Part shown: one piece after another, positions 11,211 through 60,744 of the stretch
Position numbering within the stretch: position 1 is the stretch's first letter
Layout: each line of letters starts with the position of its first letter
Assembly (NCBI GenBank): GCA_028287105.1
Contig: JAQBQH010000344.1
Coordinates: forward strand, 26-64,025
Source: Myxococcales bacterium
GTDB lineage: Bacteria; Myxococcota_A; Polyangia; Palsa-1104
Reading direction: 5' to 3'
DNA: 64,000 nucleotides
Notes under the pieces: model-generated
The model's input: the letters and a program-made list of their open reading frames with translations, nothing else
Databases searched by the model: none
What the model was told of the DNA's origin: nothing
Program-made: the position numbers and the translations under genes

Positions 11211-12226
11211 CAGAAGGCCTCGATTTCGCGATGCTCGGCGCGATAGTCGGCCAGGAGCGACAGCACCCGTTCGATGAGCGAGCGCGGCAGCTGCGGATCG
11301 TTCATGCGCTCGCGCAGTGACCGCGCCTCGTCGAAGAACTGCGCCCGCAGCTGCTGCGACACCGGCACCGTCGTCAGCCCCTGCTTGGCGAAGAGCCCGC
11401 CGAGCAGCGCCTCGTCCTGCGCCCGGCTGGCGTCCTCGAGGTGACCGAGCCCGCGCGCCGCCGCGTGCCGGATGATCGCCTTGTGCTCCTCCGGCAGCGG
11501 ATCGAAGGCGCGGTTGGCGATGAGCACGCAGGCGTCGAGCATCGCCAGCCTGAGCGGCACGAGGTGGCGCGCCTGCGCCGACCACTGAAACGCCAACGCC
11601 GCCGCCGGCGCCGCGATGAAGCCGTCGATCTTGCCTTCGTCGTACAGCCGCGCCGCATCTTGCAGGCTGGCGTGAACCGCCTTGAACCCCATGGCGTCGA
11701 GCGACGGTCCGAGCGTGTTGTCGACGTCCCAGGTCCACAGCGGTGTCGCCTTGAGCTCGGCCAGTGTCCGGATGGGCTTCCGCGCGAACACGAACTCGGG
11801 ACCGACGCTGACGACGCCGAGATTGACGAACCCCGACTTCCTGAACTCCTCGTCGACGCCGGGCTTGAGCCGCCCCATGACGTAGGCCAGCTCGTCGCGC
11901 CCCTGGAACAGCCCCAGGATGCGCATCACGCGCATCGTCGGTGCCAGCCGCTGGCACAACATGCCGCCCGAGAACACGCCGTCGAGCTGGTCGCGCCGGA
12001 TGCGCTCGCCCGCCTGTAGCTCGTCGCCGGCGATGCCCGAGAAGTAGATCTTGAAGCGCACCTGCCCCTTGGTCTCGTTCTCCACCGCGCGCGCGAACGT
12101 GCGGATTTCGCGCGCCCACGCGGTCCCTTCGGGCACCGGCGTGCCCATGCGCAACACGGTCTGCGCGTGCGCCGCCGCCGGCCACGCCAGCACCACGGCA
12201 GCGACGGTGACAAGGAGGGTCCGCAC
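11210..12226 (-). CDS. Periplasmic solute-binding protein, DctP/TRAP-SBP-like, paralog 1, 338 aa
   Basis: Signal peptide MRTLLVTVAAVVLAWPAAAHA. The layout is DctP-like: LRMGTPVPEGTAWARE...FARAVENETKGQVRFKIY..G.AGDEL ... LGLFQGRDE ... KPIRTLAELK. It is 45-65% identical to the four neighbouring paralogs, including the conserved GGMLCQRLAP motif. Confidence 0.7.
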   Translation of the reverse strand: MRTLLVTVAAVVLAWPAAAHAQTVLRMGTPVPEGTAWAREIRTFARAVENETKGQVRFKIYFSGIAGDELQAGERIRRDQLDGVFSGGMLCQRLAPTMRVMRILGLFQGRDELAYVMGRLKPGVDEEFRKSGFVNLGVVSVGPEFVFARKPIRTLAELKATPLWTWDVDNTLGPSLDAMGFKAVHASLQDAARLYDEGKIDGFIAAPAAALAFQWSAQARHLVPLRLAMLDACVLIANRAFDPLPEEHKAIIRHAAARGLGHLEDASRAQDEALLGGLFAKQGLTTVPVSQQLRAQFFDEARSLRERMNDPQLPRSLIERVLSLLADYRAEHREIEAF

Positions 12227-12247
12227 GAGGGCCCCTATCGTATCACG

Positions 12248-29721: not shown

Positions 29722-30264
29722 CTACTCGTTCTCGTTCTTCGAGAACAGCCCCGCCGCCCCCGTCACCGATCGATCCGGCATCACCGATCCCGACCGCTCG
29801 AACGTCGACTGGATGCTATCGCAGTCGAGATCCCCGAACGCCCACGCGCCGAACGTCGCGCTCGTGTCGGTGCCGGAGGTCGAGTACTGGTAGACGAAGA
29901 AGAAGGGATCGTCGACGGAGAAGTGGAGGACGGTCCAGCTGTCGGAGGCGAAGTTCGTCGGCGCCGGCACGCAGCGATCGCCGCTCTGGCCGCAGCAGGC
30001 GGCGGTGGCGGTGGCGCCCGGCGAGGGGCCGGCGTTGGTCGGGAACTGCTTGAGGATGGCGACGCCGCTCTTGTCGGCGTGGTCCGCTTCGTAGTACGCG
30101 ACCGACGAGTCGTAGATCTTGCGCAAGTTCATCGTCGCTTCGATGGTCTTCGAGCGGCGGATGTATTTGATCAGCGACGGAATCGCCACCGACGCCAGAA
30201 TGCCGATGATCGCCACGACGATCATGAGCTCGATGAGCGTGAAGCCGCGCTGTAGGCGTCGCAT
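29722..30264 (-). CDS. pilA: Type IV pilin (PilA-like) with class III prepilin signal
   Basis: N-terminus [29 protein letters not shown] carries the prepilin peptidase cleavage/N-methylation motif (G|FTLIE). The C-terminal domain has Cys pairs ([11 protein letters not shown]; DLDCDS). The first 30 aa closely resemble myxobacterial PilA. Confidence 0.8.
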
Positions 30265-30411
30265 GGAGCCCCTACAGTGCAGCCCCCATGCCGCGTCCTC
30301 GCCGGCGCGCTCAGTCAGACATTATCGTTACTTAGCCCCTGGCAAGGACGCCGCCCCGCGCGGATCTGCTAGCCCAAACCGGGCCCCGGTGCCGTGAATT
30401 GTCACCGCGTC

Positions 30412-31269
30412 CTACTTGAGCCCGGCGGCGTTCCACTTCTTGACCGTGTCCTTGATGAGCGCGCCGACCTTGGCCACCACGCGCTTGTAGTACTCGTCGG
30501 CCTTCTTCTGATCGAAGTCGGTCGGCCAGCCCTGCCCCGGCTTATATAACGTGATGCTCGAGGGAAACGGCGTCGCCGACCAGGCGCCGGGCGCCGGATT
30601 CGCCGTCGCCATCTCCTTGCCGGTGTAGAGCTCCTTGTGCACGAGCTTGGGATTGATCGCCTGAACGAACGCGGTCTCGTTGATGCCGGCGTGGCCGCCG
30701 TCCTCGCCGAAGATCTCCTGCGTCACGTCGCTGCACAGCGCCCACCAGTTGATCACCATCGTCTCGACGCCGTGCGCGAACGCGACCTCGCGCGTCACCG
30801 CGTCGAGGATCGCCGTCTGCGGCCCGCCATGTCCGTTGAGCACCACGATGCGGCGAAACCCGTTCTTCACCATGCCGTCGAGCACCGCGCGCACGTACCC
30901 CCGGAACGCCTCGTCGGGGATGTGCAGCGCGCCCGGGTAGGGCGCCATCGCGCCGGTGACCCCGTACGGAATGTGCGGCGCGACCAGCGCATTGACCTCC
31001 TCGGCCAGCGCGCGCGCTATCGCCACCGGCGCGGTGTTGTCGGCGCCGTTGTTGATGACCCCGTGCGGCTCCATCGTCCCGACGGTGACCAGCACGGTGT
31101 CGATGCGCGCGGGCACCAGCTTTCTAAACTCCATCCAATTGAGGTCGTTCATCTCGCGCGTCGCCAGCTTGGGCTCGGCTGCGGAGGCGACGGGTGCGAA
31201 GGCAACGGCCGCGAAGGCGACGACAGGGACGAGGGCCAGCGTCACGGTCAAGATGCGCATGCCGCGCAT
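30412..31269 (-). CDS. Creatininase-family amidohydrolase with N-terminal signal/TM segment
   Basis: Creatininase-like metal-binding blocks (TVGTMEPHG ... VLNGHGGP ... GGHAGINET). The start was chosen at the ATG at 31269 (MRGMRILTVTLALVPVVAFAAVAFA...), which lies inside a GCTAGGATGCG motif. Alternative starts are 31260 or 31329. Confidence 0.65.
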   Translation of the reverse strand: MRGMRILTVTLALVPVVAFAAVAFAPVASAAEPKLATREMNDLNWMEFRKLVPARIDTVLVTVGTMEPHGVINNGADNTAPVAIARALAEEVNALVAPHIPYGVTGAMAPYPGALHIPDEAFRGYVRAVLDGMVKNGFRRIVVLNGHGGPQTAILDAVTREVAFAHGVETMVINWWALCSDVTQEIFGEDGGHAGINETAFVQAINPKLVHKELYTGKEMATANPAPGAWSATPFPSSITLYKPGQGWPTDFDQKKADEYYKRVVAKVGALIKDTVKKWNAAGLK

Positions 31270-31807
31270 CCTAGCGTATGCTTCTGCCGTGCGGATCGAG
31301 ACCGAGCGGCTCATCCTGGTGCCGATCACGCTCGAGATGTTCGAGGCGGTCTACGTCGGCGATCGCGCCCGCGCCGAGCTCCTGGCGAACGCCCGCCTCC
31401 CCGACGCCTGGCCCGGCCGCGCCATCCTCGAGCGGGCCTTCTCCGCCGACATCGACCTCATCCGCGAAGATCCCCCGCGCCGCCTGTGGGGCGACCGGCT
31501 CATGATCTCGCGCGGCGAGCCGCGCATCGTCGGCAGCGTCATCTTTCACGGCCGCCCCGAGGACGGCATCGCCGAGGTCGGCTACGGCGTGGAGCTGGAG
31601 TCGCAGGGGCGCGGCTTCGCCACCGAGGCCACGCGCGCCTGCGTCGACTGGGCGCTCGCGCAGCCCGAATGCGTGGCCGTCACCGCCACCACCTTCCCCT
31701 GGCACAAGGCGTCGCTGCGCGTCATCGAGAAGCTCGGCATGACGCAAGCCGGCTCGCGCGAGCACGACCTCCTCGGCGAGCTCTTCGTCTTCGAGAAGCG
31801 CCGATGA
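31253..31807 (+). CDS. GNAT family N-acetyltransferase (RimJ/RimL-like)
   Basis: IETERLILVPITLEMF...GSVIFHGRP.DGIAEVGYGVELESQGRGFATEA...IEKLGM. The start is ambiguous (31253 or 31259) and overlaps the divergent creatininase start. The stop overlaps the next gene as ATGA. Confidence 0.7.
   Translation: MRMPRILAYASAVRIETERLILVPITLEMFEAVYVGDRARAELLANARLPDAWPGRAILERAFSADIDLIREDPPRRLWGDRLMISRGEPRIVGSVIFHGRPEDGIAEVGYGVELESQGRGFATEATRACVDWALAQPECVAVTATTFPWHKASLRVIEKLGMTQAGSREHDLLGELFVFEKRR
31265..31275 (-). promoter_or_regulatory. GCTAGGATGCG start-context motif, copy 3 (minus strand)
   Basis: The minus strand reads ACGCTAGGATGCGCGGCATGCGCATC. The motif ATG (31269) is the predicted start of the creatininase-family gene, with a second ATG 7 nt after the TAGGAT. 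Confidence 0.35.
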
Positions 31808-32640
31808 AGCCGAAGCACATCCCGTGGCGCCGCCTCGCCGCCGACCTGCGCCGCGAGATCCACGAAGATCACCTCGCGCAAGGCGCCGCCGCCCTCGCGT
31901 TCTTCTGGATGCTCGCGCTCTTCCCGGCCGCGATCTTCCTCCTCACGCTGCTCGCCTATCTGCCCATCCCGCATCTCGAGCGCGCGCTCATGCACCTCGT
32001 CTCCGACACGCTCCCCGCCGACGCGGCCGGCCTGTTTCGCGGCGTCGTCGAGAGCGTCTTTTCCAAGCGGCGCGGCGGCTTCCTCTCGGTCGGCCTCATC
32101 CTCACCGCCTGGTCGACCTCGAGCGGCGTGCATGCGCTCATGCAGCAGCTCAACGTCGCCTACGACGTCTCCGAGCGCCGCCCCTATCTGCGGCGCCGCA
32201 TGGTCGCCATCATCCTCTCGATCACCTTCTTCGTCCTCATCATCGGCGCCTTCGTCTTGATCGTCGCCGGGCGCTTCCTGCAGCGCCACCTCGTGCACCT
32301 CGGCGCGGGCGACATCCTGCCGGCGGTGGTGCTGCTGCGCTGGATCATCGTGCTGGTCGCGCTCCTGACCGGCCTCGCCGTCGTCTATCGCTACGGCCCG
32401 AGCGTGAAGCAGCGCTTCCGGCTCGTCTCGCCGGGCAACGTGCTCGCCGTCCTCATGCTGTTCGTCGCATCGGTGGGGTTCCAGCTGTTCGTGCGCTGGT
32501 TCGGGCACTTCGACGTGACCTACGGCAGCCTGGCTGCCGTGATCACGCTGATGCTCTGGCTCTATCTGGCGGGGTGGGCGGTGCTACTCGGTGCGGAGCT
32601 CGACGCGACGCTGGCGTCCTACGGGCGTCGCGGCGCTTGA
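31804..32640 (+). CDS. YihY/BrkB (ribonuclease BN-like) family membrane protein
   Basis: AQGAAALAFFWMLALFPAAIFLLTLLAYLP ... six TM segments ... YGSLAAVITLMLWLYLAGWAVLLGAELDA. These are YihY family hallmarks. Confidence 0.75.
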   Translation: MKPKHIPWRRLAADLRREIHEDHLAQGAAALAFFWMLALFPAAIFLLTLLAYLPIPHLERALMHLVSDTLPADAAGLFRGVVESVFSKRRGGFLSVGLILTAWSTSSGVHALMQQLNVAYDVSERRPYLRRRMVAIILSITFFVLIIGAFVLIVAGRFLQRHLVHLGAGDILPAVVLLRWIIVLVALLTGLAVVYRYGPSVKQRFRLVSPGNVLAVLMLFVASVGFQLFVRWFGHFDVTYGSLAAVITLMLWLYLAGWAVLLGAELDATLASYGRRGA

Positions 32641-32662
32641 CGGCGGGGCGAGGAGCGGCGAG

Positions 32663-33826
32663 CTAGCGGCAGCTCGTGTACGTGATGCACTGGCCCTGAG
32701 CATCGCACTGCCAGCCGCCGGAGCACTCGTTGGCCGTGTAGCCGTAGTCGGCGCACTTGTACTCGCACGCCGGCGTCGGGGCCGGCGTCGACAGCGACGG
32801 GACCGTGTCGACGTAGGCCGACGCGTAGGCGTCGATGTACTGGTACTGGATGAAGCCGTAGCCGGGGCCGTACGGGTTGTCGATGCCGAAGCGCGCCGTG
32901 CCCCAGCTGTTCTTGAAGATGTAGAAGACCTTCTGCATGACCGGATTGCCGGCCGCGTCCTTGACCGGCACGCCCTTTTCGTCGACGGCCGGGAAGCTCA
33001 GGTTGTCATCCCAACCGACGATGAGGATGCCGTGGCCCGCGCGCTCCTTGTGGCTCTCGGTGATGTCCTTGGCGTTCGGATTGCGCACGATGCCCTGGCG
33101 GAAGTCGGCCTCGCTCACCGTCAGCGTCGAGAGGCGGTGGTTCCACGCCTGATAGAAGAAGTCGATGCCGACGACCACGGCGGTGTGGTTCTTCGAGATG
33201 TGCGACTTGATCGAGCGCGACGACAGGTAGCTGCCGCTCGGGAGCTTGTACTGCTTGGCGGCCAGCGCGGCCGCGGACGGCTCGCCTTCGGTCCAGCACT
33301 TGGTGGGAAGCGACTCGCCTTCGGCGCCGGTCGACTTGCACGCCGGATCGTCCGCCTCGGTCCACGGATTCGGGTTGTACGCCCAGGCGCTCTCCTCGGG
33401 GATGCCGAACTTGGCGATGGCGGCGACGTTGTCCGAGTTGTTCGAGCCTTCGGAGTTGGTGTACGAGCCGTACTGCTTCTTCACCGACCACTGCAGGTAC
33501 TGCTCGGAGAAGTCGGGCATCGCGAGGCCCGCCTTGATGTAGAGGTGCTCCATCAGGCCGATGGTCGAGAAGATGGTGCAGACGCCGCGGCGCGCCTGGT
33601 TGCGCACCGGCGACTGCCACTGCAGGAGCTCCGTGTTCTTGGCGGCGATGGCGTCCGCCTTGAAGTCGATCTGCGGCAGCGCATCGTTGCTCGGCGCGCC
33701 CTTGAAGACCGAGTCGTAGCTGGTGAGCGGCGAATCTTCCTCGCCGACGTTGTCGAGCTGCGTCTGGCCGGCACAGCCGACGAGCAGGGTAGAGGCGAAG
33801 AGCGGGAGCAGGATGTGTTTGCGCAT
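32663..33826 (-). CDS. Papain-like (C1 family) cysteine peptidase lipoprotein with Cys-rich C-terminal tail
   Basis: Lipobox LLVGC. The catalytic Cys context is Q..RRGVCTIFS, with a catalytic His/Asn region (HGILIVGWDD ... NSWG). The C-terminus (CEYKCADYGYTANECSGGWQCDAQGQCITYTSC) is a Cys-knot-like module. Confidence 0.75.
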   Translation of the reverse strand: MRKHILLPLFASTLLVGCAGQTQLDNVGEEDSPLTSYDSVFKGAPSNDALPQIDFKADAIAAKNTELLQWQSPVRNQARRGVCTIFSTIGLMEHLYIKAGLAMPDFSEQYLQWSVKKQYGSYTNSEGSNNSDNVAAIAKFGIPEESAWAYNPNPWTEADDPACKSTGAEGESLPTKCWTEGEPSAAALAAKQYKLPSGSYLSSRSIKSHISKNHTAVVVGIDFFYQAWNHRLSTLTVSEADFRQGIVRNPNAKDITESHKERAGHGILIVGWDDNLSFPAVDEKGVPVKDAAGNPVMQKVFYIFKNSWGTARFGIDNPYGPGYGFIQYQYIDAYASAYVDTVPSLSTPAPTPACEYKCADYGYTANECSGGWQCDAQGQCITYTSCR

Positions 33827-33963
33827 GGCGGGGCGCGCATCTCACGAAACATGCCAGAAACCGGCACTAGTGGACGCCCACCCAAATCGCGGAGTTGTTT
33901 GAATTGGCTTACGAAAATCACGGGGTAGGAGTGGCGCCTACAGCCGGCGATTGCGACAGCCTG

Positions 33964-35058
33964 TCACACCAGATTCTGGAGGTCGTACTGCTTGAACTTC
34001 CAGATGACGCCGTCGAGGTAGTAGTGGCCGAGGGTGAGCGCGGTCCACAGCGCCAGCGCGACCTCGCCGAGTGCCCAGCCGGTCAGGCGCGCGCCGGCAA
34101 ACGCGATCAGGTAGACGCCGGTGGCGCAGGCGGCGAGGACGGCGACGTACCCGAAGGCGCGGCCCGGCTGCGACACCCACGAGATCAGGCGCGCGTTGGG
34201 ATCGCGGCGGCCGGCGTAGCGGGTGCGGTTGTACTGCCACACGATGCCGATGTACTGCACCGCGTGCCACAGCGCGGCGGCGGCGAAGGCGCTCGTGCCG
34301 TTCTTGATGACGAGGAACGGCATGGCGAAGCCGAACGCGGTGCCGGCGACGAGGAGCGCGCGCAGCCAGGTCGTCGCGGGCAGCGCGCGACCACGCACGA
34401 GCAGGACCGAGTAGGCGAGGGCGATGCACGCGACCACGCCACCGACGGCGTTGACCTCCCAGGCGCGCGGAAACGGATGGATGATCTGCGTGCCGAAGAG
34501 CTCCCAGGGCCCGGTGTAGACGCGGCGTAGGACGCAGAAGAAGCAGACCGCGAAGAGCAGCGCCTTCTCGAGCCGCGCGGCGAGGGTCCCGATGGCGCCG
34601 TGCTTGCGCTGGTAGATGCGCAAGATGCCGTAGGCCTGCGCCACGAAGTGCCAGGAGGCCCAGTAGAAGATGACGGTGCGCAGATAGATGGGGCCGAGGC
34701 CGCCGGCGGCGATGCAGCCGATGGCGAAGCTGGCCAGAAGACCCGGCACGATCCAGTAGTGCAGCGGGCGGCGGTAGCGCTCGCGACGCGGCAGGTAGAC
34801 GCGCGTCCAGGTCGAGATCAGGTGCGGCCCGTTGAACAGCGCGACGGCGATCAGGATGAGGTGGCCGGGGACGCCGAGCTTGTCGCTCGCGATCCAGGGG
34901 CCGATGGTGAGGAGGGTGACGAAGACGAAGATCGTCAGGTCGACGGCGGGCGAGATGATGAAGGGCGCGGCGGCGGAGGCGGCGGCGCGGCCGGCACCGG
35001 CATGAGGTGCATCCACGGCAGGAGCAGCAGCGGCGCGGGTGATTGCGGAGCTCGCCAT
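33964..35058 (-). CDS. Hypothetical polytopic membrane protein, ~364 aa
   Basis: Trimmed to the internal ATG (MASSAITRAAAAP...). It has at least seven hydrophobic segments and conserved-looking aromatic blocks (WHFVAQAYGILRIYQRKHG; HYYLDGVIWKFK). The overlapping 542-aa ORF in another frame is rejected. Confidence 0.5.
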   Translation of the reverse strand: MASSAITRAAAAPAVDAPHAGAGRAAASAAAPFIISPAVDLTIFVFVTLLTIGPWIASDKLGVPGHLILIAVALFNGPHLISTWTRVYLPRRERYRRPLHYWIVPGLLASFAIGCIAAGGLGPIYLRTVIFYWASWHFVAQAYGILRIYQRKHGAIGTLAARLEKALLFAVCFFCVLRRVYTGPWELFGTQIIHPFPRAWEVNAVGGVVACIALAYSVLLVRGRALPATTWLRALLVAGTAFGFAMPFLVIKNGTSAFAAAALWHAVQYIGIVWQYNRTRYAGRRDPNARLISWVSQPGRAFGYVAVLAACATGVYLIAFAGARLTGWALGEVALALWTALTLGHYYLDGVIWKFKQYDLQNLV

Positions 35059-36392
35059 CGACGAGCCAGATCTGTAACTGATCCGAAGGCGCGCCGCCAC
35101 CAGCGCCCCATGCGGCGGCCGAACGAGAGCACCCACTCGCGCCGGAGGTCGGCCACGAGGTCGCGCGCGGGATCGAGGCCGCGGAGGACGCCGTCGAGGA
35201 GCGCCAGCGCGCGCACCAGCGCCAAGAGCGACGGCGACAGGCGCAGCTGATGGGTGCGGCCGAGCGCCACCATCTGCTGCAGCACGCGCGCGCCGTCGGC
35301 CTTGCCCGACGCGCCGTCGACCAAACAGGCGAGCTCCACCTCGAGGCGCGCGCGGTCGATGGCGACGGGAACGCCGCCTGGCGAGAGCGCCAGCACGGCG
35401 TCGGCGAGGGCGCGCGTGCGGCCGAGCGCCAGCGCGCGCACGAGGCGGCCCAGGCTCGTGCGCATCGCCTCTTCGACCTGCTCGACGGCGCCGAGATCGA
35501 GGAGCACGAGGCGGCCGTCGGGCTCGATGAGCACGTTGCCGGGATGCGGGTCGGCGTGGAAGACACCGTGGTCGAGGATCTGCCGTGAAAATGCGCGCAA
35601 GAGCGCGGCGCGCGCCGATCGCTGCTGCGCGTCGGTGAGCGCGGAGAGGCGCTGGCCGTGGACCTCCTCCATCACCAGCACCGTCGGGCGCGTGAGCGCG
35701 TGGTAGATGCGCGGCACGCGCACCTCCTTGGCGCCGGCGAGCAGCGTCGAGAGGCGCGTCGCGTTTTCGGCCTCGTGCGTAAAGTCGAGCTCCGCCGTGA
35801 TCGAGCGCTCGAACGCCTCGAGCAGCGCCACCGGCTCGAGCGCCGCGACCTCGGGGATCGCCTGCGCCAGGAGGCCGGCGAAGAAGCGCATGAGCGTCAG
35901 ATCGGCGGCGACCATGCGCGCCAGACCGGGGCGCTGAATCTTGACGACGACCTTCTCGCCCGTGCGCAACGTCGCGCGATGCACCTGTCCGATCGACGCC
36001 GCCGCCAGCGGCTGCGGATCGAGCGACGCGAACGCCTGGCCGAAGTGATCGCCGAGCGCGCGCTTGAGCTGCCGCTCGACGGTGCGCGTCTTCATCGGCG
36101 GCACGCCCGAGTGCAGCTCCGAAAGCGCGCGCGTGATCTCGGCGGGGAACAGATCCTCGCGCGTCGCCAGCAGCTGACCGAGCTTGATGAACGTCGGCCC
36201 GAGATCGGCGAGCACGCGCGCCAATCGCTTGCCGAGCCCCTGGGGACTAGGCCGGCGGCGCTCGAGGATCTCGCCGAACCCGTGGCGCGCCAGCACCAAC
36301 GCGACGCGCTGCATGCGCATGGCGGGGGCCCACATGCCCGTCGGCAGGATCCAGCCTGCCGAGCGCGCCGGGATGTCAGCCATCGTTGTCAC
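34935..36392 (-). CDS. ubiB: ABC1/UbiB-family atypical protein kinase
   Basis: LGPTFIKLGQLLATREDLFP, ASIGQVHRATL..GEKVVVKIQRPGL, and HGVFHADPHPGNVLIEPDGRLVLLDLGA (the catalytic loop). The C-terminal ~40 aa overlap the downstream membrane-protein gene and may be artefactual. Confidence 0.8.
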   Translation of the reverse strand: MTTMADIPARSAGWILPTGMWAPAMRMQRVALVLARHGFGEILERRRPSPQGLGKRLARVLADLGPTFIKLGQLLATREDLFPAEITRALSELHSGVPPMKTRTVERQLKRALGDHFGQAFASLDPQPLAAASIGQVHRATLRTGEKVVVKIQRPGLARMVAADLTLMRFFAGLLAQAIPEVAALEPVALLEAFERSITAELDFTHEAENATRLSTLLAGAKEVRVPRIYHALTRPTVLVMEEVHGQRLSALTDAQQRSARAALLRAFSRQILDHGVFHADPHPGNVLIEPDGRLVLLDLGAVEQVEEAMRTSLGRLVRALALGRTRALADAVLALSPGGVPVAIDRARLEVELACLVDGASGKADGARVLQQMVALGRTHQLRLSPSLLALVRALALLDGVLRGLDPARDLVADLRREWVLSFGRRMGRWWRRAFGSVTDLARRWRAPQSPAPLLLLPWMHLMPVPAAPPPPPPRPSSSRPPST

Positions 36393-36670
36393 GCGGCCTT
36401 CTTGCGGCGGTCGCTCTTCTTCGCGCGGCGCTCCGACAGTCTCCGATTTTCGGAGACGCGTGGCGCCTGGGTCTTTTGATCCTGCGTGCGCGTTTCATCC
36501 GCAATCTCGGTCGCCTCGACGGCGGACGGGCACGATCCGGGCGCGAACCACCTCCGGAAATCGAACTCCGAGAGGTTCCACGGCCACCCGTCGACGATGA
36601 TCTGGATCTCCGCGTAATACGTGGCATGTTGCCGTTTCATGTGTCGCGTCTTGAGCAAGGTTCATGCCGT

Positions 36671-36681
36671 GCTAGGATGCC
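36671..36681 (+). promoter_or_regulatory. GCTAGGATGCC start-context motif, copy 1, with an upstream TTGAGC box
   Basis: TCTTGAGC-N16-TAGGAT-GCCGCGCC. The TAGGAT fits the high-GC -10 pattern TAnnnT with a TTGAGC -35 at 16-nt spacing. The ATG within the motif is in frame with the GT2 gene that starts 36 nt downstream. Confidence 0.35.
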
Positions 36682-36712
36682 GCGCCAGACCCGAGCGAGT
36701 TGTAAAATCCTG

Positions 36713-37405
36713 ATGAAACTTTCGATCATCATTCCCGTCTTCAACGAATCCGCCACCGTCGGCGCCATCATCGACAAGGTGCGCACCCTCGATCTCGGCA
36801 AGGACGTGGTCAAGGAGATCATCGTCGTCAACGACGGCTCCTCCGACGGCACGCGCGAATCCTTGAAGCCGTACGAGAAGCTCGACGGCATGCGCGTCCA
36901 CCACTCGCCGGTCAATCTCGGCAAGGGCTCGTCGGTGCGCATCGGCTTCTCGTTCGCGTCGGGTGACATCATCACCATCCAGGACGCCGACCTCGAGCTG
37001 GATCCCGCGGAGTACAAGCAGCTCATCAAGCCGATCCTCGACGGCGACGCCGACGTGGTCTACGGCTCGCGCTTCGTCGGCAAGGGGCGGCAGGGCAAGC
37101 TGACCTTCTGGCTCGCCAACAAGGCGCTCGCGGCGCTGACCAACACGCTCTTCCGTGCGTCGCTCACCGACATCGAGACCTGCTACAAGGTCTTCCGCGC
37201 CGACGTCATTCCGCAGCTCAAGCTCAAGGCCGCGCGCTTCGAGATCGAGCCCGAATTGACGGCGCAGCTCTTGAAGCGCGGCTTCCGCATCAAGGAGCTG
37301 CCCATCGGCTACGCGCCGCGCACGCACGACGAGGGCAAGAAGATCAATTGGAAGGATGGATTCGGAGCGGTCTGGATGCTGGTGACCCAGCGGATGGACA
37401 AGTAG
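36713..37405 (+). CDS. GT-2 glycosyltransferase (polyprenol-phosphate sugar transferase, DPM1-like)
   Basis: MKLSIIIPVFNESATVGAIIDKV...IIVVNDGSSDGT...QDADLELDP...YGSRF. An in-frame upstream ATG at 36677, inside the GCTAGGATGCC motif, would add 12 aa. Confidence 0.85.
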   Translation: MKLSIIIPVFNESATVGAIIDKVRTLDLGKDVVKEIIVVNDGSSDGTRESLKPYEKLDGMRVHHSPVNLGKGSSVRIGFSFASGDIITIQDADLELDPAEYKQLIKPILDGDADVVYGSRFVGKGRQGKLTFWLANKALAALTNTLFRASLTDIETCYKVFRADVIPQLKLKAARFEIEPELTAQLLKRGFRIKELPIGYAPRTHDEGKKINWKDGFGAVWMLVTQRMDK

Positions 37406-37420
37406 CGCGGAAGGCGGAGC

Positions 37421-37750
37421 TCAGAGCGCCTTCTTGACCAGCTCTTCGATCTTCGGCTTCGGCACGGCGCCGACGATCTGGCCGACCACCTTGCCCTCCT
37501 TGAACAGGAGCAGCGTCGGAATCGAGCGCACGTCGTACTGCGTCGGCACGCGCGGGTTGTCGTCGATGTTCACCTTCACCATGCGAACCTTGCCCGCGTA
37601 CTCCTTGGCGAGCTGCTCGACCACGGGGGCGATCGCGCGGCAGGGTCCGCACCACGGGGCCCAGAAATCGATGAGGACGGGCTCCTTCGACTGCAGAACA
37701 TCCGCTTCGAAGCTGGCGTCGGTCACGTTGGCGATGCTGTCAGATCCCAT
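37421..37750 (-). CDS. trxA: Thioredoxin
   Basis: 109 aa with the WCGPC active site (VLIDFWAPWCGPCRAIAP) and a thioredoxin fold. Confidence 0.95.
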   Translation of the reverse strand: MGSDSIANVTDASFEADVLQSKEPVLIDFWAPWCGPCRAIAPVVEQLAKEYAGKVRMVKVNIDDNPRVPTQYDVRSIPTLLLFKEGKVVGQIVGAVPKPKIEELVKKAL

Positions 37751-37768
37751 GAGAACTCCTTATCACAT

Positions 37769-37779
37769 GCTAGGATGCG
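37769..37779 (+). promoter_or_regulatory. GCTAGGATGCG start-context motif, copy 2
   Basis: CATGCTAGGATGCGGCGGCGCATGAAA. The ATG inside the motif (37775) is the ORF-track start of the YfhO-like gene. It lies 24 nt from the divergent trxA start. Confidence 0.35.
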
Positions 37780-40084
37780 GCGGCGCATGAAAAGGTGGCG
37801 CTGGGCCGCGTTGGCGTCGCTGATTGTCGGTGTCCTCGTCCTTCATCACGAGGTGCTGCTGGGTGGGCTCGTGTACCACAACGAGGACGCCGCCGACGGC
37901 TACTATCCAAGCCATGTAGCGATCCAGCGTGCGCTCGGCAAGGGGGAGCTGCCGACGTGGGAGCCGGGCGCGTGGGCCGGCTGGCCGCTGCACGTCGATC
38001 CCTACTACGGTCTCTATTATCCGCTCAGCGCGATCTACGCCGTGTGGGGTGCAGTGCGCGGGCTCGGCGTGACCGTGGCGCTGCACGCGCTCCTGGCCGG
38101 GCTCGGCATGCTGTGGCTCATGCGGCGCCGCAAGCTCGACTGGGGGCCGGCGCTGTTCGCGGCGGTGTCGCTGGCGTTCGGGTCGTTCATGGTCGAGCGT
38201 ATCCGCCACATCATCTTCGCGCAGATGATGGCGTGGCTGCCGCTCATCCTCGTCGGCGTCGAGGGCTACCTGGCGGAGCGGCGCGCGCGCTGGCTGGTGT
38301 TGGCGGCGGCGGCGACGGGTATGGCGCTCGTGTGCGGCGCCTTGCCGCTGGCGCCGTTCGTCGTGCTCACCGTCGGTGGCTACGTCGCCGCGCGACTGGC
38401 CGCCGTCGATCGCGCGGCGCGGCTGCGCACGCTCACCTGGCTCGGGACGGCGGCGCTGGCCGGCGGGCTGGTGGCGGCGGCGCAGATCGTACCGACGGTG
38501 GCGCATCTGCCGTATTCGCCGCGCTCGCTCGGGGTCGACTACCAGTTCGCCTCGTCGTACGCATGGCCCGATGTGCGCTATCTCGGCGTCCTCATCGCGC
38601 CCGATCTCTTCGGCGGCGCCGATCGCGGGCACTGGTTCGGCGTCTTCAACCACTGGGAAATGGCCGGCTGGTACACGGGCGCGCTGACGGTGCTGCTGGC
38701 GCCGTTGGGCCTGGTGCGGCGCCGCCCCGAGCTGTGGGCGCTCGGCGCGGTCGCGCTCCTCGGGATTCTCCTGGCGTTCGGCGACCACGCGCCGGTGCAT
38801 CGCTTCTTCTTCCACTACGTCCCGCTCTACGGCGCGCTGCGCTGCCCGACGCGCGCGCTCGTCATGGACCTGGTCGCGCTGCCGATCCTCGGCGCCGAGG
38901 GGCTGGCCTGGCTGTCGGAGCGCGTGCGCACGCGGCGCGCGGCGGGCCTCGCCTGCGCGATCGCGTTTGCCGTCGCCGGTGTCGTCGCCGCCAGCCTGCT
39001 GCACGCGCCTGCGAAGTTCTCGCCGGCCGTCGTCGCCACGCGTCACGCCTTCGGCCACTTCGCGCTCGTCGTCGGAGCGGGTGGGGCGCTCGCGTCGCTG
39101 CTCGTCGCCGGCGTCGTGCGTGCGCCGGTCGCCACGTTCGCCATCGCGCTGGTCTCGCTCGTCGATCTCGTCTCGGTCAGCCGCGGCTCGGTGCAGCCCA
39201 AGCCGCGCGACTGGGCCGAAGGGACCGAGCGCTTCACCGCCGTCGACTGGCTCCTCGAGCACCATCCGGCCGATCGCTTCATCACCGACTACCGCGGCCC
39301 CTTCCGCTTGCACAACCTCGGCATGACCTACGATCTCGAGGGCGCCGGCGGGTACGAGTCGTTCACGGTGTGGCGCTACGTCAACCTCCTCTACACGATC
39401 AACAACGGGCAGCCGTACCCGTTCGACAAGCTCAAGCAGGATCTGGCGGCCGGCGATGTGCGGCGCTTCGATACGCCGCTCGTCGATCTCCTCAACCTGC
39501 GCTGGTTCATCGGCCTGTCGCCGCCGGCGCCCCACTGGGTCGAGCGCTTCCGTCCCACGCCGGGTGCCAGGCCGCACGCGGTGCACGAACCGACGTGGGA
39601 TCCGCAGCTCGTCGTCTACGAAAATCCGCGCGTCCTGCCGCGCGCGTTCGTGGTCCATCACGCGTCGGTGCTGCCGACCGATCGCGCCCAGGCCGCGGCG
39701 CTGGTCACGCTCGATCCGCGCGCCGACGTCATCCTCGACGCCGCGCCGTCGCCGCCCCCCTCGGGGAGCGGGCTCGAGCCGGCGCGCGTGACGACTCACG
39801 AGCGGGCGCGCGTTGTCGTCGACAGCGATGCGCCCTCGCCAGGCGTGCTGGTGCTGGCCGACACCTGGTACCCCGGCTGGCGCGTCACCGTCGACGGCGC
39901 GGCGGCGCCGCTCCTGCGCGCCGACTACGCTTTCCGCGGCGTGGCGCTGCCCGCCGGCCATCACCTCGTCGAATTTACGTATCGCGCACGACCGGCCGCG
40001 ATCGGGCTGTGGCTGTCGCTCCTCGGGCTCCTCTCGCTCGGGGGCATCGCTCTCATTGGGCGTAAGCGCCCGTCGCTGTTATAA
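37775..40084 (+). CDS. YfhO-family large polytopic membrane protein (GT-C-like glycosyltransferase candidate)
   Basis: 769 aa with ~12 or more TM segments in the N-terminal half. The C-terminal soluble domain has YfhO-like blocks (VLVLADTWYPGWRVTVDGAAAPLLRADYAFRGVALPAGHH). The start ATG sits inside the GCTAGGATGCG motif; an alternative start is 37787. Confidence 0.7.
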   Translation: MRRRMKRWRWAALASLIVGVLVLHHEVLLGGLVYHNEDAADGYYPSHVAIQRALGKGELPTWEPGAWAGWPLHVDPYYGLYYPLSAIYAVWGAVRGLGVTVALHALLAGLGMLWLMRRRKLDWGPALFAAVSLAFGSFMVERIRHIIFAQMMAWLPLILVGVEGYLAERRARWLVLAAAATGMALVCGALPLAPFVVLTVGGYVAARLAAVDRAARLRTLTWLGTAALAGGLVAAAQIVPTVAHLPYSPRSLGVDYQFASSYAWPDVRYLGVLIAPDLFGGADRGHWFGVFNHWEMAGWYTGALTVLLAPLGLVRRRPELWALGAVALLGILLAFGDHAPVHRFFFHYVPLYGALRCPTRALVMDLVALPILGAEGLAWLSERVRTRRAAGLACAIAFAVAGVVAASLLHAPAKFSPAVVATRHAFGHFALVVGAGGALASLLVAGVVRAPVATFAIALVSLVDLVSVSRGSVQPKPRDWAEGTERFTAVDWLLEHHPADRFITDYRGPFRLHNLGMTYDLEGAGGYESFTVWRYVNLLYTINNGQPYPFDKLKQDLAAGDVRRFDTPLVDLLNLRWFIGLSPPAPHWVERFRPTPGARPHAVHEPTWDPQLVVYENPRVLPRAFVVHHASVLPTDRAQAAALVTLDPRADVILDAAPSPPPSGSGLEPARVTTHERARVVVDSDAPSPGVLVLADTWYPGWRVTVDGAAAPLLRADYAFRGVALPAGHHLVEFTYRARPAAIGLWLSLLGLLSLGGIALIGRKRPSLL

Positions 40085-40091
40085 TCCTCGG

Positions 40092-40421
40092 ATGGCGCGC
40101 CTGTTCATCTCCGCCGACCAGATGGATCGCTGGTCGGGTGAAGGCAAGGTCACCTTGCAAGACGACGTCATGGCGCTGCCTGCGCTCAACCGCTCGTTCC
40201 GCCTGCGCACTGCCGTCCGCTTCTTGTCGGTCGTCGAAGGCGGCGATGTCCACGGGCTCATCGGCCGCGTCAAGACCGACGAGCAGCTGGCCGAGATGGG
40301 CGGCGAGCATTACGGAGCCAGCGTCATCATGGGCGACATCGGCTACGAGTGCGAAGAGGGGTTCATCGGCATGCCCGTCGACGGCGGCCAATCCGGTCTC
40401 CTCAAGCTGCCAGGACAGTGA
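40092..40421 (+). CDS. Hypothetical cytoplasmic protein, 109 aa
   Basis: The track ORF was trimmed to the ATG at 40092 (MARLFISADQMDRWSGEGKVTLQDDVMAL...). It has high GC3 and occupies the gap between yfhO-like and hemX-like. No motif is recognised. Confidence 0.45.
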   Translation: MARLFISADQMDRWSGEGKVTLQDDVMALPALNRSFRLRTAVRFLSVVEGGDVHGLIGRVKTDEQLAEMGGEHYGASVIMGDIGYECEEGFIGMPVDGGQSGLLKLPGQ

Positions 40422-40425
40422 GCTG

Positions 40426-41220
40426 ATGCCGCCGCTGTTTCCCGTCACGCTGGCGCTCTACGCCGTCGCGCTCTCCTTGTACCTGGCGCACCTCATGGCC
40501 GGGACCCAGAGCCTCGCGCGCGCGGCTCGCATCGCGCTCCTCGCCGCGTTCGGCGCCCAGGCCATCGACATCGGCTGGCTCTGCACGCACGGGCTCCATC
40601 CGGCGGTCTCGGCGCGCGAAGCGATGTCGTTCGCGGCCTGGCTCATCTGCGGCGCCTACCTGGCGCTCTCGTTCCGTTTCCGCGTTCCCGTCGTCGGTGC
40701 GCTCGTGGTCCCGGTGACCATGGTGCTCGACCTGGCGGCGCGACTGTCGCCGCAGCACGAGCCGTCCCACGGGGTCTCCACGCTCGGCCTGACGCACATC
40801 ACGCTCGCCACCGCGGGCGTGGCGCTCTTTGCCGTCGCTGCCGGCGCCGCCGTCGTCTACCTCGTCGAAGAGCGCAACTTGAAGGCGCATCGCGCGCAGA
40901 AGATGTTCAAGCGCGGTGGCGCCTCGCTCGAGACGCTCGACCGCCTCAACCGTCGCTGCATCGTGTTCGGCTTTCCGCTCTTCACCGTCGCGCTCATCAC
41001 CGGCGCGGTGTGGGGCGTGCAGCTTCACGATCAGCTGTTCACGCCGCAATACTCGATCGCCGCCGCCGCGTGGCTCATGTACGCGGTCTTGATCGTCGCG
41101 CGGGTCACCGCCGGTTGGCGCGGACGGCGCGCCGCCATCATGACGCTGGGCGGCTTCGCCACGTCGCTGACGGTGCTGCTCATCTACTACGTGCGCGGCT
41201 TCGGCGGTACGGCGGGCTAG
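40426..41220 (+). CDS. Cytochrome c assembly (CcsA/HemX-like) membrane protein
   Basis: Polytopic, with CcsA-family features (WLMYAVLIVARV..GWRG). It lies immediately upstream of hemA, as does Bacillus hemX. Confidence 0.6.
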   Translation: MPPLFPVTLALYAVALSLYLAHLMAGTQSLARAARIALLAAFGAQAIDIGWLCTHGLHPAVSAREAMSFAAWLICGAYLALSFRFRVPVVGALVVPVTMVLDLAARLSPQHEPSHGVSTLGLTHITLATAGVALFAVAAGAAVVYLVEERNLKAHRAQKMFKRGGASLETLDRLNRRCIVFGFPLFTVALITGAVWGVQLHDQLFTPQYSIAAAAWLMYAVLIVARVTAGWRGRRAAIMTLGGFATSLTVLLIYYVRGFGGTAG

Positions 41221-44062: not shown

Positions 44063-44557
44063 CTACAGCAGCTTCTGCAAATACACGCAGTCCAGCCACT
44101 GCCCGAACTTGAACCCCACCACGCGCAACCTCCCCGCATCCACGAACCCCGCCGCCCGATGTAGCGCCACGCTCGCCTCCTGATCCGCCGAGATGCTCGC
44201 GACGATGGTCCGATGTCCCAGGCCCCGCGCGCGCTCGACCAGGTCCGTCAACAGCGCTCGCCCCACGCCGCGCCGTAGCCGCCCGGGGTGCACGTAGACG
44301 GTGTTCTCGACGGTAAATCGATACCCCTCGCGCACGTTGTAGACCGAGAGCGATCCCCAGCCGACGACCTCGCCATCCAGCACCGCGACGGTGACCGGAT
44401 GTTCCTGATCGTGCGCGCTCAGCCACAGTCGCCGTTGCGCGGCGGTATTGGGCTCGCACTGCCACGTGCAGGTCGCGTTCAAGACGTAGTGGTTGTAGAT
44501 GGCGTCGATCGCGGCGAGGTCGTCCTCGCAGGCGTCGCGAATTGTCAGCTCGCCCAT
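44063..44557 (-). CDS. GNAT family N-acyltransferase
   Basis: 164 aa with the acetyl-CoA binding loop RRGVGRALL and a GNAT fold pattern (NTVYVHPGRLRRGVGRALLTDLVERARGLGHRTIVA). Confidence 0.75.
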   Translation of the reverse strand: MGELTIRDACEDDLAAIDAIYNHYVLNATCTWQCEPNTAAQRRLWLSAHDQEHPVTVAVLDGEVVGWGSLSVYNVREGYRFTVENTVYVHPGRLRRGVGRALLTDLVERARGLGHRTIVASISADQEASVALHRAAGFVDAGRLRVVGFKFGQWLDCVYLQKLL

Positions 44558-44636
44558 CCCTCGATCCTACGGCGCCGACGTTTCGGATGCGTTTCCGTCA
44601 CCTCGGCCTAGGAGCCGGCTCAGCCCGCCAGCCGCC

Positions 44637-45476: not shown

Positions 45477-46033
45477 TTCGTGAACGCGAGCACGGCGTCG
45501 ACCTTCAGCTCGTCGTCGACCTTGACGAACATGAGGCTGGGGCGCTCGACCTTGTAGGCGTCGAGGCTGATCGGAATCGTGGCCTTGGCGACCACCCTCT
45601 GCGCCGACTGCCAGGTGACATCGACGGGCAGCTCGAACAGCTGCTGAATGCCGTGGAACGTGAGCTGCGCCTTGAACGTCTTCTTCTGCGTCGTCGGGAA
45701 GCTCGTCGGCGGCACCAGGCCGTCAGCGAGCGCCTTGACCTCGATCCACGGATACTTCGCCGCCTCGACCGCTTCCTTCATGTGCGAGTCGCGGTTGACG
45801 TTGCCCGAGTCGAACGACTCCGACGGCGCGCGCACCACGACCTGCGCCTTGCCGTCGGGCAGAAGGCGAGCCTTGCCTTCGACCTTGTGAGAGACGCCGT
45901 CGACTTTGTGCATCTTGTGGACGAGATGGTAGGTGAGCGACGAGCCCTTGGTGTCGACGGCGTAATCGGCGGGCTGTTGCGCGCGCGCGACACCGGACAG
46001 GAGCACGATCGCAAGGCTGAGGAGCTTGCGCAT
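45473..46033 (-). CDS. YceI-family periplasmic polyisoprenoid-binding protein
   Basis: Signal peptide MRKLLSLAIVLLSGVARA and a YceI beta-barrel pattern (SSLTYHLVHKMHKVDGVSHKVEGKA...NVNRDSHMKEAVEAAKYPWIEVKA...KAQLTFHGIQQ). Confidence 0.75.
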   Translation of the reverse strand: MRKLLSLAIVLLSGVARAQQPADYAVDTKGSSLTYHLVHKMHKVDGVSHKVEGKARLLPDGKAQVVVRAPSESFDSGNVNRDSHMKEAVEAAKYPWIEVKALADGLVPPTSFPTTQKKTFKAQLTFHGIQQLFELPVDVTWQSAQRVVAKATIPISLDAYKVERPSLMFVKVDDELKVDAVLAFTK

Positions 46034-46042
46034 GCGCGAACG

Positions 46043-46273
46043 CTAGCACGCCGGCCAGTCGTCGGGGCGCGCGATCTCGATGAGCCCCGCCTCGGCGGTG
46101 AGCCGCTGCACCAGGAGCTCCGCCTCTTCCTCGAGCCCCTCGCCGACCATCCATTCGATCTCGCCGCGGCGCGGGTCGGGCGCGCGCAGGAGCGCGACGC
46201 CGTCGTAGGCCTCGATGATGGCGCGAACGTACCCGATCTGCTCGAGCGGGACCCGGAAGTAGCGTGAGCTCAC
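46043..46273 (-). CDS. Small hypothetical protein (DUF4911-like, ~76 aa)
   Basis: The GTG at 46273 gives (M)SSRYFRVPLEQIGYVRAIIEAYDGVALLRAPDPRRGEIEWMVGEG.... It lies 9 nt upstream of the yceI-like gene on the same strand. Confidence 0.4.
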   Translation of the reverse strand: MSSRYFRVPLEQIGYVRAIIEAYDGVALLRAPDPRRGEIEWMVGEGLEEEAELLVQRLTAEAGLIEIARPDDWPAC

Positions 46274-46338
46274 CGACGCGGAGGATAGCGGTTTTTTGCG
46301 CCGGCACCATCCAGTCGGTAGACTTCTACGTTGGGAAG

Positions 46339-47274
46339 ATGGGCACACGTATTTTTGCGTTGGGGATTTGCGCGGCGCTGCTGCCGGGATGCGGCGAGAC
46401 CATCTCGCGCGCCGAGCTCACGGACGTGCGCCAGCGTCTCGACGCCGAGCAGAAGCGGTCGGCGTCGGCGCAGCACAAGGTCGACGAGCTGGAGAACCGG
46501 GTCTTCCTCTTGACCGATCAGGTCGAGAGCCAGAAGGTGGCGTCGCTGCACCGCACCACGCGGACGCTGCCGGTGGTGACGCTCAAGCCTGACGCCGTAG
46601 AGCCCGCCGCCGACGCTGCCGACGAGGTCGGCTTCGAGGGCGCGGCGCGCTCGAACGATCCCGATCACACGCGTCCGGTGTTCCGCATCGACAATTCGCG
46701 ACCGGGCGCGCACCGCGCCGAGCCGGTGGCGCACAAGACCGAGGCCGCGCCGCGCAAGGCCGAGCCGGTGGCGCACAAGCCGGTCGAGAGCAGCTCCGAC
46801 TCCGACGACAACCTCGGGGTCGCACCGGTCCCGCCGATTCGCGGTTCCGCTTCGGCGCCCGCCGAGCGCAGCGCGCCGGCGGTCGAGCCCTTGACGCTCT
46901 ATCGCGCCGCCTACGAAGAGCTGCGCGCCGGCCGCCACGACAGCGCCGAAGCCGGCTTCCGCGACTTCGTGCGCCGCTTCCCGCATCACGACTACGCCGA
47001 CAACGCGCAGTACTGGCTCGGCGAATGTTTCTACGACCAGAAGCGTTACGATAAGGCCGCGCCGGAGTTCCGCGCGGTCGTGCAGCGCTGGCCGACCGGC
47101 AACAAGGCGCCCGATGCGCTGGTCAAGCTCGGCTTCTCGCTCATCGCGCTCGGCGAGATCGACAAGGGCCGACAGACGCTGCGTGAGGTGCCGACGGCCT
47201 ATCCGCGCACCGAGGCGGCGCGACTGGCCGCCGAGCGGCTGGCGCAGCTCACACCGACGGAGGGATCGAAGTGA
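46339..47274 (+). CDS. YbgF/CpoB-like Tol-Pal associated lipoprotein (coiled coil plus C-terminal TPR)
   Basis: Lipobox ALLPGC, an N-terminal coiled coil (LDAEQKRSASAQHKVDELENRVFLLTDQVESQK) and a C-terminal TPR block (AAYEELRAGRHDSAEAGFRDFVRRFPHHDYADNAQYWLGECFYDQKRYDKAAPEFRAVVQRWP). Confidence 0.7.
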   Translation: MGTRIFALGICAALLPGCGETISRAELTDVRQRLDAEQKRSASAQHKVDELENRVFLLTDQVESQKVASLHRTTRTLPVVTLKPDAVEPAADAADEVGFEGAARSNDPDHTRPVFRIDNSRPGAHRAEPVAHKTEAAPRKAEPVAHKPVESSSDSDDNLGVAPVPPIRGSASAPAERSAPAVEPLTLYRAAYEELRAGRHDSAEAGFRDFVRRFPHHDYADNAQYWLGECFYDQKRYDKAAPEFRAVVQRWPTGNKAPDALVKLGFSLIALGEIDKGRQTLREVPTAYPRTEAARLAAERLAQLTPTEGSK

Positions 47275-60677: not shown

Positions 60678-60744
60678 ACGGCGAGCCTACCACCGCCCGG
60701 CGCCAATTTTCGCGCGCCGCGCCGGGCCGACGTACGATGCGGTC

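Follow-up and report, generated by a model that had tools for sequence, protein, structure and literature searches.

The 64,000-nucleotide stretch of DNA analysed here (the window) comes from a metagenome-assembled genome of the Polyangia (Myxococcota) and carries three exact copies of the 10-mer GCTAGGATGC, each upstream of a different gene. An earlier reading of the letters alone (hereafter the sequence-only reading) had placed them at 31266–31275 on the minus strand and at 36671–36680 and 37769–37778 on the plus strand, which we confirmed, and we refer to them as copies 1, 2 and 3. It had also seen an ATG inside the motif that is, or is in frame with, the predicted start of the gene downstream, and in 3/3 copies this ATG does stand in frame with the next one, with no stop codon between. 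It had proposed either that the internal ATG is the start codon or that the hexamer TAGGAT within the motif is the –10 box of promoters producing leaderless or short-leader mRNAs, in both cases as a shared cis element that might mark a regulon. The three genes had been assigned to the creatininase family, the GT2 glycosyltransferases and the YfhO family, and Pfam matches upheld all three assignments. The region of the window that holds the copies has a GC content of ~69–70%, and each copy lies inside a very short intergenic gap between divergent genes (28 bp, 72 bp and 36 bp from start to start for copies 1, 2 and 3, respectively). The relatives of the YfhO protein were found in Polyangia genomes, and our comparison set consisted of the surroundings of YfhO orthologs in Polyangia and related genomes (24 loci, designated below by L numbers).

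Three divergent gaps and their genes

At copy 1, TAGGAT occupies 31273–31268 on the minus strand and is followed by a 7-nucleotide GC-rich spacer (31267–31261) and then by the likely start codon (ATG, 31260–31258) of the creatininase-family gene (30412–31260, minus strand; PF02633, E = 4e-40). The N terminus read from this ATG, MRILTVTLALV..., resembles a signal peptide, and creatininase products of neither 282 nor 285 amino acids are on record in public annotation. The orthologous boxes read cgaTAGGATgcg in L002 and L007 and gcaTATGATgcc in L003, each 7 nucleotides before the ATG. On the other side of the gap, a GNAT acetyltransferase gene (31289–31807, plus strand; PF13302, E = 3e-18) begins with a GTG at 31289, with 28 bp (31261–31288) separating the two start codons, and its predicted –10 box, TATGCT (31277–31282, plus strand), lies 6 nucleotides before that GTG. 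The two boxes thus stand back to back, the plus strand reading ATCCTA-gcg-TATGCT with 3 bp between them. TATGCT is kept 6–7 nucleotides before GTG-CGG-ATC-GAG in L002, L003 and L007; TAGCGT, located 11 nucleotides before the GTG, was considered as the GNAT box and dropped, because TATGCT alone is conserved in L003.

Copy 2 forms part of the extended –10 sequence TGcTAGGAT (plus strand; TG at 36670–36671, hexamer at 36673–36678), and the –35-like hexamer TTGAGC that had been reported 16 nucleotides upstream is indeed there, at 36651–36656 on the same strand. The same upstream block, cttgagcaaggttcatgccgtgc, precedes the –10 hexamer in both the window and L003. The GT2 gene (36713–37405, plus strand; PF00535) starts at MKLSIIIPVFNE and not at the internal ATG at 36677: the independent gene call gave a protein of 230 amino acids, and MKLSIIIPVFNE or VRLSIVIPVYNE is the conserved N terminus of the orthologs. 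The 34 nucleotides between the box and this start contain no GGAG or GAGG that could serve as a Shine-Dalgarno sequence. At the orthologous position the hexamer is TAGGAT in L007, TACAGT in L003 and L002, TAGAGT in L012 and TATCGT in L024, and its distance from the start is 8 nucleotides in L012, 9 in L024, 10 in L003, 34 in the window and L007, and ~71 in L002, such that the box stays tied to the sequence upstream of it while the distance to the start shifts from 8 to ~71 nucleotides.

The GT2 leader itself (36679–36712 in the window, 8905–8914 in L003, 8841–8911 in L002) varies strongly in length among close relatives, and the long leader of L002 is made of GAGCGA-like repeats (gagcgagcaaagcgagcgcagcagagcgaagcga). 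A further candidate –10 box in this leader, TGTAAAAT, lies 4 nucleotides from the ATG; we rejected it because the spacing is too short and L007 does not conserve it. Divergent from the GT2 gene, with 72 bp from start to start, is an open reading frame of 83 amino acids (36389–36640, minus strand) with a basic C terminus, for which we found no Pfam match and no TANNNT box upstream of its ATG; its stop codon shares bases with the GTG that opens an ABC1/UbiB-like kinase gene (34935–36392).

Copy 3 likewise forms an extended –10 sequence, TGcTAGGAT (plus strand; TG at 37768–37769, hexamer at 37771–37776), here placed 10 nucleotides before the ATG of the YfhO-family membrane protein gene (37787–40084, plus strand; PF09586), whose product of 765 amino acids begins MKRWRW... 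and is listed in this form at NCBI and Logan; look-ups of the thioredoxin and YfhO products led to a single 5.6-kb Logan contig with the same sequence as the window. Its divergent neighbour is a thioredoxin gene (37421–37750, minus strand; PF00085, E = 9e-36), the start codons of the two genes being 36 bp apart, with a strong Shine-Dalgarno sequence (AAGGAG, 37761–37756) and a predicted –10 box, TAGCAT (37767–37772, minus strand), that is followed on its strand by gtgatAAGGAGttctcATG. The two boxes overlap by their TA step, the plus-strand sequence ATGCTAGGAT giving TAGGAT on one strand and TAGCAT on the other. L002, L003 and L007 all retain the block ctccttatcacatg[cg]TA, and in L002 the box on the minus strand is TACCAT. 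Unlike the thioredoxin leader with its AAGGAG, the spacers of the creatininase gene (gcgcggc) and the YfhO gene (gcggcggcgc) are too short to hold a Shine-Dalgarno sequence.

Polyangia loci share a conserved gene order, namely GT2 (plus), thioredoxin (minus), YfhO (plus), a gene of 109 amino acids and a cytochrome c assembly-like gene (36713–41220 in the window; around 8700–12400 in L002, L003, L007, L012 and L024), and the placement of GT2 beside YfhO recalls the way in which Gram-positive bacteria glycosylate their envelope in two steps with systems of the CsbB/YfhO type. The 109-amino-acid gene (40092–40421; MARLFI...), which has no Pfam match, possesses a consensus TATAAT box of its own 6–9 nucleotides before its ATG; in the window this box (40080–40085) overlaps the YfhO stop codon, and its counterparts lie at 12333 in L002, 12312 in L003, 12258 in L005 (TATGAT), 12295 in L007 and 1814 in L008. 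In L010, a relative with 59.5% GC, the exact 10-mer occurs ~320 nucleotides upstream of the YfhO start (2020–2340), and the stretch between them, which contains repeated GACG(A/T)CAACGTCAACG-like units, may represent a long leader, a small gene or an array of repeats.

Recurrence, conservation and position of the hexamer

The sequence-only reading held that the motif recurs beyond chance, and the numbers agree: 0.05 copies of GCTAGGATGC are expected per window, and 0 of 100 dinucleotide-preserving shuffles of the window reached three. It had described the shared element as an 11-mer, GCTAGGATGCG, which stands for two of the copies and fails for the one at 36671, where the last base is C. When the three copies were aligned with 40-nucleotide flanks, they had the 10-mer and an additional GCG in common but no similarity or shared positions further out, and the alignment showed neither dyad symmetry nor direct repeats. 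The last T of TAGGAT is separated from the next ATG by 7 nucleotides at the creatininase gene, 34 at the GT2 gene and 10 at the YfhO gene, and use of the internal ATG would extend the respective N termini to MRG-MRIL, MPRQTRASCKIL-MKLS and MRRR-MKRW.

At the YfhO gene, we anchored 16 orthologous promoters (protein identity ~50–80%) on the hexamer and numbered the bases from its first T (T0). T0, A1 and T5 are invariant in 16/16, and the T at –3 and the G at –2, which constitute the TG one base upstream of the hexamer seen at copies 2 and 3, are each present in 15/16. The other positions are looser, with G at position 3 in 13/16, G at +6 in 11/16 and C at +7 in 12/16, and the hexamers themselves range over TAGGAT, TACGAT, TAAGAT, TAAGGT, TACCGT, TAAGCT, TAGATT and TAACGT, with spacers of 7–12 nucleotides between box and ATG. 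The same three bases, T0, A1 and T5, are also invariant in the orthologous promoters of the creatininase gene (4/4) and the GT2 gene (5/5), again with the middle bases free. Because only the TGnTAnnnT positions are kept and the middle drifts, what is conserved is an extended –10 element and not a fixed 10-mer. L003 illustrates this at all three genes: its hexamers are TATGAT, TACAGT and TACGAT, none of the three 10-mers is present, and all of the promoters are kept. At the YfhO gene, L002 and L007 also have TACGAT.

If TAGGAT acts as a –10 box of leaderless or short-leader promoters, then boxes of the TANNNT type should be found close to gene starts elsewhere in the lineage, and this is what we observed in a positional sample comprising the window and the 24 loci (435 kb in total, short of a whole genome), with the expectation taken from spacings of 20–44 nucleotides. 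TANNNT occurs 6–10 nucleotides before an ATG or GTG that opens a reading frame 103 times, compared with 39.8 expected (Poisson p = 5e-17), with a maximum at 6 nucleotides, and TGNTANNNT occurs before ATG 27 times, compared with ~3 expected. Shine-Dalgarno-like hexamers peak as well, at 4–7 nucleotides before starts, and the presence of both peaks indicates that the two modes of initiation coexist. Among 74 candidate promoters, the base frequencies were 0.54 for T at –3, 0.61 for G at –2, 0.43 for C at –1, 0.53 for G at +6 and 0.42 for C at +7, and within the hexamer 0.47 for G at position 3 and 0.39 for A at position 4. The resulting local consensus, TGC-TA(c/g)GAT-GC, in which TACGAT is no rarer than TAGGAT, matches the motif; the 10-mer is therefore essentially the consensus –10 region.

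TAGGAT itself shows the same preference for gene starts. We counted 24 occurrences over 642 kb of GC-rich loci, compared with a mean of 67 for 89 control hexamers of the same composition, which amounts to a ~threefold depletion, and 10 of the 24 copies (42%) lie 5–12 nucleotides before a start that opens a reading frame, compared with 4.2% for the controls. This fraction ranks first among the 90 hexamers, and the hexamer ranked second, TAAGGT, also fits TANNNT. Part of the 642 kb came from additional metagenome loci obtained by a scan with a window protein sharing Ser/Thr kinase motifs (mostly distant kinase-domain matches, with ~15 close relatives); in the GC-rich ones among these, 4/4 TAGGAT copies are start-proximal, two of them in the identical loci L032 and L033. 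The depletion would fit either counterselection of spurious –10 boxes or an avoidance of CTAG or TAG. Other TAGGAT copies belong to leadered promoters of the textbook kind, as at L018 10296, where TTGACT, a 17-nucleotide spacer and TAGGAT are followed by a leader with AAGGAG.

Within the window, ~13 further starts have a TANNNT 6–10 nucleotides upstream. A fourth TAGGAT with other flanks (ccgTAGGATcgaggg; 44564–44569, minus strand) lies 6 nucleotides upstream of the start codon (ATG) of another GNAT gene, identified by its Pfam match (44063–44557, minus strand), and the orthologous site in L007 (17584, minus strand) reads gcgTAGGATcgagccATG. Two other divergent pairs have a box on each side, every one of them 6 nucleotides before an ATG: TAGGCT at 60689 (minus) and TACGAT at 60733 (plus) in the pair at 60677–60745, and TAGCGT at 46045 (minus) and TACGTT at 46327 (plus) in the pair at 46030–46340.

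Probable promoters at the three sites and the rival explanations

Footprinting, positional enrichment and the local consensus all support the proposal that TAGGAT is the TAnnnT –10 box of leaderless or short-leader promoters. We consider it probable that the copies of GCTAGGATGC are three independent, near-consensus extended –10 regions of the housekeeping type (sigma-70 family) and not a unit element, and the whole is best read as an ordinary arrangement, known in GC-rich bacteria, in a little-studied lineage. From the patterns of conservation, enrichment and consensus we infer where transcription starts, which sigma factor acts and that translation is leaderless, as follows. Sigma would read the TG with region 3 and TAnnnT with region 2, flipping out the A at the second and the T at the sixth position of the hexamer, and RNA polymerase would, by established promoter biology, start ~6–8 nucleotides downstream of the box. 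With its 7-nucleotide spacer, the creatininase promoter would start transcription at the first base of the ATG or directly beside it, and its mRNA is accordingly predicted to be leaderless (taken here as a 5′ untranslated region of at most 5 nucleotides) and would be translated without a Shine-Dalgarno sequence. The 10-nucleotide spacer of the YfhO gene would give a leader of 0–4 nucleotides, and the GT2 mRNA would have a leader of ~27 nucleotides, again with no Shine-Dalgarno sequence. The internal ATG would then be a by-product, formed by the last AT of the hexamer and the G preferred after it, and the flanks of the motif would be set by the extended –10 (TGC) together with the preference for G or C at the first two positions of the discriminator. 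In two of the copies, the flanks may be constrained further by the –10 box of the neighbouring gene, TAGCAT of the thioredoxin gene and TATGCT of the GNAT gene.

Several observations weigh against this interpretation. Copy 1 lacks the TG, with CGC preceding its TAGGAT. Measured against the leaderless optimum of 6–8 nucleotides, the creatininase spacer of 7 fits and the YfhO spacer of 10 is longer, and the GT2 copy, with its 34 nucleotides, is not leaderless in the window genome (the corresponding spacers in L003, L012 and L024 are 8–10 nucleotides). A scan of 30000–41000 in the style of E. coli, requiring at least 9/12 matches to TTGACA-N16-18-TATAAT, returned no promoter, the best match being TTGAGC-N16-TAGGAT with 8/12; we discounted this result because the –35 regions are weak and such thresholds are unsuited to GC-rich promoters. 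Finally, an independent-position promoter model assigns three identical 10-mers among 10–30 promoters a post hoc probability of ~1e-4 to 3e-2, which leaves room for some further shared constraint. Recurrence of the motif is far above that in random sequence, yet only moderately unusual against the null of a promoter consensus.

That residual excess is the starting point for a rival explanation, in which the 10-mer marks a sub-regulon, being either the –10 of an alternative sigma factor with stricter requirements or the operator of a regulator overlapping the –10. Such a sub-regulon would place GT2 and YfhO, a plausible envelope glycosylation pair and neighbours across Polyangia, under common control with a secreted creatininase-family enzyme, and TAGGATGC is indeed found at each of the promoters in at least one other lineage (among L002, L007, L005, L020, L025 and L010). 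On the other hand, the invariant positions are those of a generic –10 and nothing more, the flanks fit the general consensus of unrelated promoters, and the alignment revealed neither symmetry nor similarity outside the 10-mer. The exact 10-mer is absent from 232 kb of additional related GC-rich loci, and close relatives do not retain it as a whole at the three genes, with TACGAT at YfhO in L002 and L007 and other hexamers at all three promoters in L003; the retention of those three promoters in L003 without any 10-mer argues against a dedicated regulon site. The probability estimate is post hoc as well. We consider a sub-regulon unlikely, and the regulon suggested by the sequence-only reading is not supported. 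In a more ambitious version, which we regard as quite unlikely, a dedicated factor such as an alternative sigma or a repressor over the –10 would recognise the exact 10-mer and not just TGnTAnnnT, tying GT2 and YfhO to the secreted creatininase-family amidase; its milder form, to which we give the same standing, is that the Polyangia are an unrecognised leaderless-rich lineage of proteobacterial grade with compact, overlapping divergent –10 boxes.

A different possibility is that the internal ATG is the true start and the motif a preferred context for starting translation. The open frame in all three window copies is compatible with this idea, and among the orthologs the ATG keeps the frame at the creatininase gene in 4/4 and at the YfhO gene in the four closest ones. 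At 7- or 10-nucleotide spacing, however, the in-frame state is a matter of arithmetic (AT+G plus 6 or 9 nucleotides), and frame does not discriminate at the creatininase gene, because all four orthologs keep the 7-nucleotide spacing. Where frame is informative, it speaks against the idea: in 12/16 YfhO orthologs the equivalent codon is missing, does not encode a start or lies out of frame, and at GT2, where the distance from box to start varies, the equivalent position has no start codon in L024, is out of frame in L012 and in L007 opens a frame that runs into TAA after five codons. The peptides that would precede MRIL, MKRW and MKLS are not conserved, the independent gene calls for YfhO (765 amino acids) and GT2 (230 amino acids) chose the shorter starts, and no Shine-Dalgarno sequence lies upstream of the internal ATG. 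We therefore judge initiation at this codon very improbable.

Least credible of all is that the copies recur by chance without function or belong to a dispersed repeat or mobile element, which the shortness of the motif (10 nucleotides) and its having been picked by eye, hence post hoc, might favour, but which the shuffles, the confinement of all copies to short divergent gaps, the lack of flank similarity and above all the retention of the T-A...T core at orthologous sites over deep divergence have already largely refuted. We found nothing in support of restriction-site or repeat-element explanations, and an Rfam scan gave no significant match, a sub-threshold CRISPR-DR29 hit (E = 0.62) inside the YfhO gene being taken as chance.

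Taken together, these results partly support the sequence-only reading, whose promoter interpretation is probably right and whose proposals of an internal start and a regulon were not borne out. In practical terms, a TGnTAnnnT located 6–10 nucleotides upstream serves well to mark true gene starts in GC-rich uncultured myxobacteria, and the AT+G that closes the box, which can mimic an upstream start codon, poses a risk of false N-terminal extensions in annotation. With the ~13 starts in the 64-kb window, the Polyangia join the lineages where a considerable fraction of transcription units appears to be leaderless, and the 28 bp between two start codons at copy 1 illustrate how compact divergent promoters can be. 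The current understanding of transcription or translation initiation is unchanged by these results. Elsewhere in the window, an open frame of ~3,700 codons with ~75% GC (1059–12242, minus strand) encodes a giant protein with many weak matches to TPR/ARM-type repeats.

Comparison with known promoter systems

In high-GC bacteria, a TANNNT ~12 bp upstream of the start (counted from its first T) is the signature of leaderless genes, and a TG extension can replace the –35 region (PMC3160421). Among the genome classes of GeneMarkS-2, those of 'group C' have a Pribnow box 6–8 nucleotides from their starts and are rare in Proteobacteria (5.6%; PMC6028130). We came across no survey that treats leaderless genes systematically in Myxococcota, and the Cappable-seq paper on M. 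xanthus (PMC8844925) contains no global statistics of 5′ untranslated regions or –10 boxes; a sigma-A-type promoter from which a leaderless transcript 'may be transcribed' has been proposed for pexR in myxobacteria (PMC12754779). The promoters described here resemble the leaderless promoters of Actinobacteria and Deinococcus-Thermus in their TAnnnT with an uninformative middle and in the lack of a Shine-Dalgarno sequence (PMC3160421, PMC6028130, PMC3898074, PMC4007540). The position of the box ~6–8 nucleotides before the start, typical of those promoters, is that of the creatininase copy, with the YfhO copy at the border. As in other high-GC leaderless systems, they coexist with Shine-Dalgarno-led genes, and their spacing has the same peak at 6 nucleotides. 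They differ from the promoters of Actinobacteria and Deinococcus-Thermus in belonging to the Polyangia, in their prominent TG and in the 9–10-nucleotide spacers that are common at the YfhO promoter.

With the classical extended –10 (TGnTATAAT), copies 2 and 3 share the TG one base upstream of the hexamer and a –35 that is weak or absent, whereas the hexamer is GC-enriched (TAGGAT or TACGAT, not TATAAT) and copy 1 has no TG. The vegetative –10 consensus of the Streptomyces type is TAG(Pu)(Pu)T; TAGGAT fits it as TAGRRT, in a different phylum and with the difference that TACGAT is here at least as common.

The divergent gaps also invite comparison with bidirectional promoters. In their canonical form, according to the summary of Warman et al. 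(2021) given in PMC10268837, these show reciprocal pairing of –11A and –7T and a distance of 18 bp between the two starts; a broader definition given in the same source covers divergent starts 7–25 bp apart. Set against that summary, the sites described here depart from the canonical symmetric 18-bp type, the boxes at copy 1 lying 3 bp apart, and with A at –4 having a frequency of only 0.16 among the promoters, overlapping divergent boxes are no general rule in the lineage. The boxes at copy 3 share only the TA step, which puts the predicted separation of their starts at ~23 bp, and it is in these overlapping divergent boxes, and in predicted starts that, if real, fall within the range of 7–25 bp, that the likeness to bidirectional promoters, so far as they are summarised there, lies.

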